The notes beneath the pieces are model-generated. The model worked only from the letters and a program-made list of their open reading frames with translations. It ran no database searches and was not told where the DNA came from. The position numbers and the translations under genes are program-made. Below are positions 13,254-18,635 of a DNA stretch of 64,000 nt, piece after piece; within the stretch, counting starts at the first letter, position 1, and each line of letters begins with the position of its first letter. The stretch lies in assembly GCF_016903815.1 (NCBI RefSeq), contig NZ_CP069973.1. One strand, written 5' to 3'. The stretch is from Escherichia coli (GTDB taxonomy: Bacteria > Pseudomonadota > Gammaproteobacteria > Enterobacterales > Enterobacteriaceae).

Positions 13254-14687
13254 ATGAATAAAAAATCGTTATGGAAGCTAATTCTGATATTAGCGATCCC
13301 ATGTATTATTGGCTTTATGCCAGCTCCGGCAGGATTAAGCGAACTGGCGTGGGTGCTTTTTGGTATTTACCTGGCGGCCATTGTGGGGCTGGTTATCAAG
13401 CCTTTCCCGGAACCTGTCGTACTGTTAATTGCCGTTGCTGCCTCCATGGTGGTGGTCGGTAACTTATCCGACGGTGCGTTTAAAACCACCGCCGTATTAA
13501 GCGGTTACTCTTCAGGTACCACCTGGCTGGTGTTCTCGGCGTTTACCTTAAGCGCCGCATTTGTGACCACCGGCTTAGGTAAACGTATTGCCTATTTGCT
13601 GATTGGTAAAATTGGTAGCACTACCCTGGGTCTGGGTTACGTTACGGTATTTCTCGATCTGGTACTGGCTCCGGCAACACCGTCTAACACCGCGCGTGCG
13701 GGCGGCATTGTGTTACCGATCATCAACAGCGTGGCGGTGGCTTTGGGGTCCGAACCGGAAAAAAGCCCGCGTCGTGTCGGACATTACCTGATGATGTCCA
13801 TTTACATGGTCACCAAAACCACCAGCTATATGTTCTTTACCGCAATGGCGGGGAACATTCTGGCGCTGAAAATGATCAACGATATTCTGCACCTGCAAAT
13901 TAGCTGGGGTGGATGGGCGCTGGCCGCCGGATTGCCGGGTATCATTATGCTGCTGGTCACCCCGCTGGTGATTTACACCATGTATCCGCCAGAAATTAAG
14001 AAGGTGGATAACAAAACCATCGCCAAAGCGGGCCTTGCCGAACTGGGACCGATGAAAATCCGCGAAAAAATGCTGCTCGGTGTCTTCGTGCTGGCGCTGC
14101 TGGGCTGGATTTTCAGTAAGTCACTGGGGGTTGATGAATCCACCGTGGCAATCGTTGTTATGGCGACCATGCTGCTGCTGGGTATCGTTACCTGGGAAGA
14201 CGTGGTTAAAAATAAAGGCGGCTGGAATACCTTAATCTGGTACGGCGGTATTATCGGCTTAAGCTCCTTATTATCGAAAGTTAAATTCTTCGAATGGTTA
14301 GCTGAAGTCTTTAAAAATAACCTGGCATTTGATGGTCACGGTAACGTTGCTTTCTTCGTTATTATTTTCCTCAGCATTATCGTGCGTTATTTCTTCGCTT
14401 CCGGTAGTGCCTATATCGTTGCCATGTTACCGGTATTTGCCATGCTGGCGAACGTCTCCGGCGCACCGTTAATGTTAACCGCGCTGGCACTGTTGTTCTC
14501 CAACTCCTATGGCGGCATGGTTACTCACTATGGCGGCGCGGCAGGTCCGGTCATCTTTGGCGTGGGTTATAACGATATTAAATCCTGGTGGTTGGTCGGT
14601 GCGGTACTGACGATATTAACCTTCCTGGTGCATATCACCCTTGGCGTGTGGTGGTGGAATATGCTGATCGGCTGGAACATGCTGTAA
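13254..14687 (+). CDS. ybhI: DASS-family putative di/tricarboxylate transporter
   Basis: 477 aa polytopic membrane ORF. Confidence 0.9.
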   Translation: MNKKSLWKLILILAIPCIIGFMPAPAGLSELAWVLFGIYLAAIVGLVIKPFPEPVVLLIAVAASMVVVGNLSDGAFKTTAVLSGYSSGTTWLVFSAFTLSAAFVTTGLGKRIAYLLIGKIGSTTLGLGYVTVFLDLVLAPATPSNTARAGGIVLPIINSVAVALGSEPEKSPRRVGHYLMMSIYMVTKTTSYMFFTAMAGNILALKMINDILHLQISWGGWALAAGLPGIIMLLVTPLVIYTMYPPEIKKVDNKTIAKAGLAELGPMKIREKMLLGVFVLALLGWIFSKSLGVDESTVAIVVMATMLLLGIVTWEDVVKNKGGWNTLIWYGGIIGLSSLLSKVKFFEWLAEVFKNNLAFDGHGNVAFFVIIFLSIIVRYFFASGSAYIVAMLPVFAMLANVSGAPLMLTALALLFSNSYGGMVTHYGGAAGPVIFGVGYNDIKSWWLVGAVLTILTFLVHITLGVWWWNMLIGWNML

Positions 14688-14689
14688 AT

Positions 14690-14814
14690 ATACTCGTCAT
14701 ACTTCAAGTTGCATGTGCTGCGTCTGCGTTCGCTCACCCCAGTCACTTACTTATGTAAGCTCCTGGGGATTCACTCGATTGTCGCCTTCCTGCAACTCGA
14801 ATTATTTAGAGTAT
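14690..14814. repeat. ERIC (enterobacterial repetitive intergenic consensus / IRU) element
   Basis: Contains CGCTCACCCCAGTCACTTACTT (reverse complement of the ERIC2 primer sequence) and ATGTAAGCTCCTGGGGATTCAC (ERIC1R sequence) plus outer imperfect inverted arms; about 125 bp between ybhI and ybhJ. Confidence 0.75.
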
Positions 14815-14869
14815 ATCCATTTATTATCTTTCTGCGCACTTCTCGGTGCGCAGATATCTGGAGCATTTG

Positions 14870-17131
14870 ATGATCAAGTTATCTGAAAAAGGCGTGTTTC
14901 TCGCCAGTAATAACGAAATAATTGCCGAAGAACATTTCACCGGCGAAATTAAAAAAGAAGAAGCAAAAAAAGGCACTATTGCCTGGTCTATTCTCTCTTC
15001 TCATAATACGTCCGGAAATATGGATAAACTTAAAATTAAGTTTGATTCATTAGCCTCTCACGATATTACCTTTGTTGGTATTGTACAGACCGCTAAAGCG
15101 TCCGGTATGGAACGTTTCCCGCTGCCGTATGTGCTGACCAACTGCCATAACTCACTTTGCGCCGTCGGCGGCACCATTAACGGTGATGACCATGTTTTTG
15201 GTTTATCGGCGGCTCAGCGTTATGGCGGTATTTTTGTGCCTCCGCATATTGCGGTCATCCATCAATATATGCGCGAGATGATGGCAGGCGGCGGCAAAAT
15301 GATCCTCGGGTCAGACAGCCACACCCGTTACGGTGCATTAGGGACAATGGCAGTCGGTGAGGGCGGCGGCGAGTTGGTAAAACAATTGCTTAATGACACC
15401 TGGGATATCGACTATCCGGGAGTTGTTGCGGTGCATCTGACCGGAAAACCAGCGCCGTATGTGGGGCCACAGGATGTGGCGCTGGCTATCATCGGTGCCG
15501 TGTTCAAAAACGGCTACGTCAAAAACAAAGTGATGGAATTCGTAGGTCCCGGTGTTGCTGCGCTCTCTACCGATTTCCGTAACAGCGTTGACGTTATGAC
15601 CACGGAAACGACCTGTTTAAGTTCTGTCTGGCAAACCGATGAAGAAGTCCATAACTGGCTGGCGCTGCACGGTCGCGGCCAGGATTACTGCCAGCTTAAC
15701 CCTCAACCGATGGCGTACTACGATGGCTGCATCAGCGTTGATTTAAGCGCCATCAAACCAATGATTGCGCTGCCGTTCCACCCGAGCAACGTGTATGAAA
15801 TCGACATGCTGAACCAGAACCTGACCGACATTCTGCGTGAGATTGAAATTGAGTCCGAACGCGTGGCGCACGGTAAAGCCAAACTCTCGCTGCTGGATAA
15901 AGTGGAAAATGGTCGCCTGAAAGTGCAGCAGGGGATTATCGCAGGCTGTTCTGGCGGTAACTACGAAAACGTCATCGCGGCGGCGAATGCACTGCGCGGT
16001 CAATCCTGTGGCAATGACACCTTCTCGTTAGCGGTTTACCCGTCATCACAGCCGGTGTTTATGGATTTAGCCAAAAAAGGCGTGGTAGCAGATTTGATTG
16101 GCGCAGGCGCAATCATCAGAACCGCGTTCTGCGGCCCATGCTTTGGCGCGGGCGATACGCCAATCAACAACGGTTTGAGCATTCGCCACACCACGCGTAA
16201 CTTCCCGAACCGCGAAGGCTCTAAGCCAGCCAATGGGCAGATGTCAGCGGTGGCGTTGATGGACGCTCGTTCTATCGCTGCGACTGCGGCAAACGGTGGC
16301 TATTTAACCTCTGCCAGCGAACTTGATTGCTGGGACAACGTGCCGGAGTACGCCTTCGATGTAACGCCGTATAAAAACCGTGTTTATCAGGGCTTTGTGA
16401 AAGGGGCGACCCAGCAACCGCTGATTTACGGACCGAACATTAAAGACTGGCCGGAATTGGGTGCGCTGACTGACAATATCGTCCTCAAAGTGTGCTCGAA
16501 GATCCTCGACGAAGTCACCACCACCGACGAACTGATTCCTTCCGGTGAAACCTCTTCTTATCGTTCAAATCCGATTGGTCTGGCGGAGTTTACCCTGTCA
16601 CGCCGCGATCCAGGTTATGTTGGCAGAAGTAAAGCGACTGCTGAGCTGGAAAATCAGCGTCTGGCGGGGAATGTCAGCGAGCTGACAGAGGTGTTTGCGC
16701 GCATTAAGCAGATTACTGGTCAGGAGCATATTGATCCGCTGCAAACTGAAATTGGCAGCATGGTCTATGCGGTGAAACCAGGCGATGGTTCTGCGCGTGA
16801 GCAGGCGGCGAGCTGCCAGCGTGTGATTGGCGGTCTGGCGAATATTGCCGAGGAGTACGCGACTAAACGCTACCGTTCTAACGTCATCAACTGGGGGATG
16901 TTACCGCTGCAGATGGCGGAAGCGCCAACGTTTGAAGTGGGGGATTACATTTACATCCCTGGCATTAAAGCAGCGCTGGATAATCCGGGTACGACGTTTA
17001 AAGGTTATGTGATCCATGAAGATGCGCCGGTAACGGAAATTACGCTTTACATGGAAAGCCTGACGGCCGAAGAGCGCGAGATTATCAAGGCGGGTAGTTT
17101 GATTAACTTCAATAAAAACCGTCAGATGTAA
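14870..17131 (+). CDS. ybhJ: aconitase-family putative hydratase
   Basis: ORF track begins at an upstream non-ATG start (14846); ATG at 14870 ([10 protein letters not shown]) has GGAG 7 nt upstream and gives the 753 aa recalled for K-12. Confidence 0.9.
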
Positions 17132-17135
17132 AAAA

Positions 17136-17200
17136 AGGCGCTATGAAATATAGCGCCCAGTTTCATTAACCCGATGGTTCAGACTATCGGGTTTTCTTTT
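17136..17200. terminator. paired hairpins between convergent ybhJ and ybhC
   Basis: GGCGCTAT-GAAA-TATAGCGCC hairpin then CCCGATGG...CTATCGGG hairpin followed by T-rich tract. Confidence 0.5.
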
Positions 17201-18484: not shown

Positions 18485-18635
18485 AGGTTGCTCCGGGCTA
18501 TGAAATAGAAAAATGAATCCGTTGAAGCCTGCTTTTTTATACTAACTTGAGCGAAACGGGAAGGTAAAAAGACAAAAAGTTGTTTTTAATACCTTTAAGT
18601 GATACCAGATGGCATAGCGCCATCTGGCAGAGTGA

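Follow-up and report, generated by a model that had tools for sequence, protein, structure and literature searches.

A full-length ERIC element between ybhI and ybhJ of Escherichia coli, its insertion history and its possible part in processing of the ybhHIJ message

The spacer between ybhI and ybhJ of Escherichia coli contains a full-length ERIC (IRU) miniature inverted-repeat transposable element of 127 bp, located at positions 14689-14815 of the window (the whole stretch of 64,000 nucleotides that was analysed), an assignment that we regard as practically certain. The element is non-autonomous. The explanation that we favour as a whole, with a probability of roughly 0.6, is that of a fixed ERIC copy that would be read through within the ybhH-ybhI-ybhJ message and there expose, when opened by ribosomes, a site for cleavage by RNase E.

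ERIC elements have been known since 1990-91; those of E. coli, also named IRU, were reportedly treated by Sharples & Lloyd in 1990, Hulton et al. in 1991 and Wilson & Sharp in 2006. Being a textbook ERIC at a position that is also present in K-12, the copy described here is of a known kind and has almost certainly been recorded before, and nothing of substance distinguishes it from the known E. coli elements. A literature search for ERIC together with ybhJ returned nothing relevant, and RefSeq leaves the 182-bp ybhI-ybhJ spacer (14688-14869, corresponding to 803,321-803,502 of NC_000913.3 in MG1655) without annotation.

Identity, limits and family of the element

The two flanking genes, ybhI (13254-14687, annotated as an anion permease) and ybhJ (14870-17131, annotated as a hydratase), lie on the same strand in the RefSeq annotation of strain 7/2, a 100% match to the window, as well as in that of K-12 MG1655; these gene coordinates make the position of the element intergenic, with 54 bases between its end and the ybhJ start (Table 1). 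By family, YbhH belongs to the PrpF isomerases, YbhI to the anion transporters of DASS type and YbhJ to the aconitases. Homologues of YbhJ with 67-74% amino-acid identity were also encountered in many Clostridia (Lachnospiraceae, Enterocloster, Hungatella and others; contigs L009-L082), the homologue from Edwardsiella (81%) being little closer than these. The clostridial genes mostly lack ybhH and ybhI neighbours, and a LysR-type gene lies nearby in 16 of 74; these observations suggest that the gene may have been transferred across phyla.

Table 1. Features of the ybhI-ybhJ spacer (window coordinates)
Feature	Position	Strand	Remarks
ybhI stop codon TAA	14685..14687	+	one base between the stop and the first ERIC base
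ERIC / IRU miniature inverted-repeat element, 127 bp	14689..14815	+	strand given in the sense of the ybhI-to-ybhJ transcript; primer sites, palindrome, end-to-end alignment with 43 independent ERIC loci
Left terminal inverted repeat TATACTC	14689..14695	+	from sequence; first TA (14689-14690) is copy 1 of the target-site duplication
Central conserved inverted repeat	14731..14774	.	ERIC2 site (-) at 14731-14752 and ERIC1R site (+) at 14753-14774
AU-rich stretch GAAUUAUUUAG, candidate RNase E site	14799..14809	+	in the 3' arm as transcribed; from a motif scan and a fold under constraint
Right terminal inverted repeat GAGTATA	14809..14815	+	from sequence; last TA (14814-14815) is copy 2 of the target-site duplication
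Perfect 9-bp hairpin TCTGCGCAC-N6-GTGCGCAGA	14831..14854	+	GC-rich; 5 nt upstream of the ybhJ Shine-Dalgarno; outside ERIC
ybhJ ribosome-binding site	14860..14872	+	GGAG 14860-14863, ATG 14870-14872; RefSeq start; both invariant in the cross-species alignment

An ERIC element between these genes had been proposed from the letters of the window alone, on the grounds that both ERIC primer sequences are present verbatim within an imperfect palindrome of ~125 bp, and its presence is borne out by the primer sites, the palindrome, the alignment of the arms and the RefSeq gene calls. The ERIC1R primer sequence, ATGTAAGCTCCTGGGGATTCAC, matches exactly on the + strand and that of ERIC2, AAGTAAGTGACTGGGGTGAGCG, exactly on the - strand; each occurs only once in the 64 kb, even with up to three mismatches allowed, and in none of 100 shuffled sequences. 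Around these sites extends an imperfect palindrome, whose outer arms, each of 26 nt (14688-14713 and 14791-14816), show 81% complementarity and whose central arms occupy 14737-14750 and 14755-14768. The limits of 14690-14814 given in the original prediction have to be widened by one base on either side, to the ends TATACTC and GAGTATA; the narrower range, 125 bp, corresponds to the length of the net insertion, by which the spacer here (182 bp) exceeds that of the empty site described below (57 bp). A palindrome arisen by chance is ruled out by the shuffles and by the z-scores of the hairpin, and a REP/BIME identity by the unrelated sequence.

To place the element within its family, metagenome contigs were scanned with a 20-nt piece of the ERIC core, which yielded 120 hits in 56 flank groups and, once copies of the ybhI-ybhJ locus had been removed, 43 independent full-length loci. 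Since the core had served as bait and is therefore identical by construction, only the arms were compared with the consensus. Outside the primer sites they agree at 82/83 positions with an E. coli-type consensus derived from independent copies and at 74/83 with that of all 43 loci, so that the good fit to the family is not confined to the primer-matching core; over its whole length the element agrees with the all-copy consensus at 118/127 positions. Most copies begin with TATAC and end with GTATA, and element position 6 changes in step with position 122 between loci, the two being T-A in 14 copies and C-G in 26. Near-identical copies are present in 5425 of the 5426 complete E. coli genomes, at a median of 6 places per genome, and the window strain has a single substitution of its own, A in place of C, at element position 90.

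ERIC/IRU elements are defined by a length of ~127 bp, inverted-repeat ends, TA termini with duplication of the target, an intergenic site and a transcript that forms a hairpin (PMC2229807, PMC3184786). The hallmarks are all found at ybhI-ybhJ: the length of ~127 bp, the central inverted repeat, similarity to the family over the whole length, TA-ended terminal repeats, dispersal in multiple copies and the hairpin fold. A second copy, between cusC and cusF of E. coli BLR(DE3) (L083 2501-2628), differs at only 2 of 127 positions and has the same length, TATACTC/GAGTATA ends, TA flanks and central inverted repeat. It starts 5 bases past the annotated end of cusC and stops 25 bases short of cusF, so that both elements are intercistronic, begin 1-5 bases after the upstream stop and have like orientation to transcription. 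No match to the ybhI-ybhJ junction was found in BLR(DE3).

Some metagenomic copies depart from this pattern. At L143, L157, L091, L105 and L109, one half is a normal ERIC and the other a foreign GC-rich repeat (for example ...GCCCCTACGGG...CAGGGCCAGCGCAAGC); these chimeric copies may represent either ERICs that took up insertions internally or composite repeats. On contig L197 the left flank of another ERIC locus is joined to the ybhJ side, probably an assembly chimera formed through the repeat.

Among other small repeats, REP/BIME elements are likewise intergenic, transcribed and palindromic enterobacterial sequences able to affect mRNA decay, but they consist of GC-rich units of ~35-40 bp with another consensus; a REP cluster occupies the ybhJ-ybhC spacer of K-12 and not that of the window strain. 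In MG1655 this spacer (L002 8766-8998) is 233 bp long and full of REP/BIME-type repeats, and in the window strain (17132-17200) it is 69 bp long and contains two back-to-back terminator-like hairpins. The Correia (NEMIS) elements of Neisseria resemble ERICs in being small, with inverted-repeat ends and TA duplication, co-transcribed and processed by a ribonuclease, at their paired ends (PMC10969869); their sequence is unrelated, and their duplex is the substrate of RNase III, in contrast to an unmasked single strand cut by RNase E. Promoters or IHF sites are present in some Correia elements, whereas ERICs have no known DNA motif (PMC2229807).

A scan against Rfam at gathering thresholds gave no family that reached its cut-off at the ERIC. 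We know of no ERIC family in Rfam. Elsewhere in the window, two known features exceed their gathering scores: 27961-28105 matches a molybdenum cofactor riboswitch at 103 bits, and 31693-31816 matches STnc490, a small RNA that binds Hfq, at 146 bits. The attachment site of phage lambda, located between ybhC and ybhB, has its core, GCTTTTTTATACTAA, intact at 18531-18545 and is thus unoccupied in the window strain.

Insertion history and conservation

We searched all complete E. coli genomes, at a stringent E-value cut-off, with an empty-site query composed of the left flank, TA and the right flank. Among the 5426 genomes, exactly one has the empty site, that of E. coli GF4-3 from guinea fowl (NZ_CP053258.1; L084 3035-3091), in which the spacer is 57 bp long and contains a single TA in the context CTGTAAA-TA-TCC (junction CTGTAAATATCC). 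This single TA identifies the ERIC as a net insertion of 125 bp accompanied by a TA duplication. The element with both flanks was found in 5331 genomes, which makes one empty junction among 5332; some ybhHI DNA is present in 5361 genomes, the genes are missing from 65, and partial deletions or insertion-sequence insertions occur in some.

GF4-3 may have lost the ERIC secondarily and precisely, or it may carry an old ERIC-less allele. The flanks of its empty site are those of an ordinary E. coli, with ybhH, ybhI and ybhJ intact and 97-98% identical; however, two substitutions private to this strain lie within 7 bp of the junction, one of them being the Citrobacter state. In GF4-3, ybhI and ybhJ share a reading frame, in which the ybhI TAA is the sole stop codon up to ybhJ.

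In Escherichia albertii the ERIC is inserted at the same TA. The ybhH-ybhI-ybhJ arrangement occurs without it in Citrobacter youngae, C. gillenii, Citrobacter sp. FP75, Intestinirhabdus alba and Edwardsiella hoshinae, whose spacers, apart from that of I. alba (~200 bp), are ~57-70 bp long and hold the hairpin and the Shine-Dalgarno. The simplest reading of this distribution is a single ERIC insertion before the split of E. coli and E. albertii, at a TA one base past the ybhI stop, which would then have gone to fixation. The hairpin ahead of the ybhJ Shine-Dalgarno occupies the same place in 8/8 enterobacterial loci, ERIC-less ones included; its stem sequences differ between them, with compensatory changes in 3/8 pairs. 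As judged from this alignment, the hairpin is ancestral and older than the ERIC, which would have inserted upstream of it; were the ybhJ message processed, this hairpin might shield its 5' end.

Compared with E. albertii, the window differs at 1 of 127 ERIC sites, at 4 of 54 sites in the rest of the spacer and at 55 of 200 third-codon sites (27.5%) in the flanking genes, for which the adjacent 300 bp of ybhI and ybhJ served as reference (Fisher p = 2e-12). Within E. coli (19 haplotypes), variable sites number 5/127 in the ERIC versus 44/200 at third-codon positions (p = 2.5e-6), and the rate of change of the ERIC is about that of amino-acid-changing sites. High sequence conservation is a long-known property of the family. 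Gene conversion with other ERIC copies could contribute to this slow evolution; since it would not by itself hold the family consensus constant between species, we infer that some selection, on the host or on the source copies, is implied.

Transcription, folding and a proposed processing step

No sigma-70-like promoter was detected by scanning either strand of the spacer, nor any intrinsic-terminator-like site, the nearest being the ybhJ/ybhC pair at 17137-17193. An internal promoter in the spacer was rejected on this promoter scan, and an intrinsic (Rho-independent) terminator because the scan found no GC-rich stem directly followed by a U run. With a spacer devoid of both, the ERIC is probably co-transcribed. 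The short spacers of the ERIC-less relatives make it likely that ybhI-ybhJ co-transcription is ancestral, and the ERIC would thus probably be read through within the ybhH-ybhI-ybhJ message. The copy between cusC and cusF lies inside cusCFBA, which we take to be one operon; its position and identical orientation are consistent with co-transcription at ybhI-ybhJ, and for this twin, too, read-through may be presumed. Expression of ybhH and ybhI is repressed by YbhD, a LysR regulator encoded divergently (PMC9068703); the supplement of that study holds no expression values for ybhJ.

The + strand, which is the sense strand, is predicted to fold as RNA into a long hairpin of -42.4 kcal/mol (z = -5.7); the corresponding values for the - strand are -53.6 kcal/mol and z = -6.7. 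All 46 distinct ERIC copies fold ~10 kcal/mol more weakly in the orientation that is sense at ybhI-ybhJ (mean -42.6 versus -52.7 kcal/mol), a family-wide effect of G-U versus C-A. In these folding models, the asymmetry hints at RNA-level selection in the stronger-folding orientation. The ybhI-ybhJ mRNA carries the weaker-folding one, with the AU-rich stretch in its 3' arm. Among 49 distinct metagenomic copies, orientation beside stop codons showed no clear bias on crude ORF calls (12 in this orientation, 9 in the other).

In Yersinia, ERICs located at the 3' ends of genes lower the amount of the upstream transcript by means of an RNase E site that is unmasked in the 3' inverted repeat, in an orientation-dependent manner (PMC2229807, PMC3184786, PMC10969869). 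As described for Y. enterocolitica (De Gregorio et al. 2005, via the same three papers), these ERICs share with the present copy the miniature size, the TA duplication, the position beside a stop codon and, probably, co-transcription, to which we add, by analogy, the proposed ribosome-dependent unmasking; they differ in that the effect has been measured in Yersinia only, and in their consensus, the Yersinia type being unlike the ybhI-ybhJ copy (which agrees with the all-copy consensus at 118/127). The sense orientation at ybhI-ybhJ would correspond to the Yersinia 'B' orientation, as judged from the position of the AU-rich arm. An AU-rich 3' arm beside a stop codon is the arrangement for which reviews report upstream destabilisation in Yersinia.

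By this analogy, the ERIC, with neither promoter nor terminator of its own, would be read through in the ybhH-ybhI-ybhJ messenger, and its RNA would fold into a long imperfect hairpin between the ybhI and ybhJ cistrons. With one base between the ybhI stop and the left arm, a ribosome at that stop must cover the arm, and ribosomes terminating at ybhI would repeatedly open the base of the hairpin and bare the AU-rich 3' arm to RNase E. A cut in this arm would divide the message into a ybhHI portion and a ybhJ portion, the latter starting with the older, conserved GC-rich hairpin ahead of its ribosome-binding site. The outcome would be unequal stabilities of the two parts, an effect that is possibly small. 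Every step beyond the co-transcribed hairpin is our best mechanistic guess. The GAAUU at 14799 fits the RNase E pattern RN↓WUU and is a candidate site by motif scan; when a ribosome footprint was imposed at the stop codon in a constrained fold, the unpaired probability of the 3' arm rose from 0.30 to 0.48. Counting against the mechanism are the modest extent of this modelled unmasking, the lack of a clear orientation bias in the crude test and the fact that GF4-3 does without the ERIC. The suggestion in the original prediction that the element may modulate ybhJ expression relative to ybhI is plausible as a hedged extrapolation from the Yersinia ERICs.

Alternative readings and significance

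The main rival to ribosome-unmasked cleavage, possible in our view and clearly less probable, is a neutral passenger: the element would be a fixed relic, transcribed through with no measurable effect on ybhHI or ybhJ, that stays in place for want of excision and whose sequence is held near the family consensus by gene conversion. ERIC copies are few in each genome (median 6) and near-identical between loci, as at cusC-cusF, which is what homogenisation gives; the strain lacking the element keeps the three genes intact, the ERIC-less relatives share the operon layout and the crude orientation test showed no bias. However, gene conversion homogenises copies within a genome and not a family consensus between species, and the contrast between 1/127 differences in the element and 27.5% at third-codon sites relative to E. 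albertii, together with a single empty site among 5332 junctions, speaks against a mere passenger. The slow evolution and the retention of the element in all but one of >5300 genomes would fit selection for a host role, that is, co-option as an intercistronic RNA-processing module in which the ERIC, with the hairpin ahead of ybhJ, sets different levels of YbhH/YbhI and YbhJ; such a module seems doubtful to us.

We consider it improbable that the hairpin, followed by the U-rich UCCAUUUAUUAUCUUUCU, forms a partial terminator or attenuator that ends most ybhHI transcripts and uncouples ybhJ. The tract after the ERIC is moderately U-rich, and the ybhD study reports de-repression of ybhH and ybhI and handles ybhJ apart (PMC9068703); yet the terminator scan of the spacer was empty, the ERIC stem is imperfect and AU-rich at its base, the U run is interrupted, no promoter-like site for independent expression lies between ERIC and ybhJ, and an ERIC in like orientation sits inside cusCFBA, taken to be one operon. 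Least probable of all is an independent small gene, in which the ERIC would encode a small RNA of its own, comparable to the AS5 antisense RNA of Vibrio, or else a short peptide. The whole 129-position model of Rfam RF02818 (V_AS5) can be aligned with the - strand over 14693-14816, scoring 49.7 bits (E = 2.5e-10), and shares the long-hairpin architecture, and isrH matches in part; with this score V_AS5 falls far short of its 96-bit gathering cut-off, and the Vibrio family, described as an antisense RNA, is merely ERIC-like. Membership in V_AS5 or isrH was rejected on these sub-threshold scores, those families containing ERIC-like sequence. For a peptide, the frame after the ybhI stop is open through the whole ERIC for 61 codons, and on metagenome contig L167 the ybhI stop is changed from TAA to AAA; nevertheless, neither strand has a promoter-like site, and the ERIC contains no start codon with a ribosome-binding site. 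The 61-codon frame ends at a TGA that overlaps the ybhJ ATG, and the stop change on L167 would extend YbhI through the ERIC.

An ERIC at ybhI-ybhJ in itself carries little weight beyond annotation. A change in the ratio of upstream to downstream expression by an intercistronic ERIC has been shown in Yersinia only; GF4-3 and the other strains form a natural filled/empty pair that documents the TA duplication and provides a ready control strain for this ratio in E. coli. The strong conservation of the element relative to the neighbouring silent sites restates the old question of why ERICs are so conserved.
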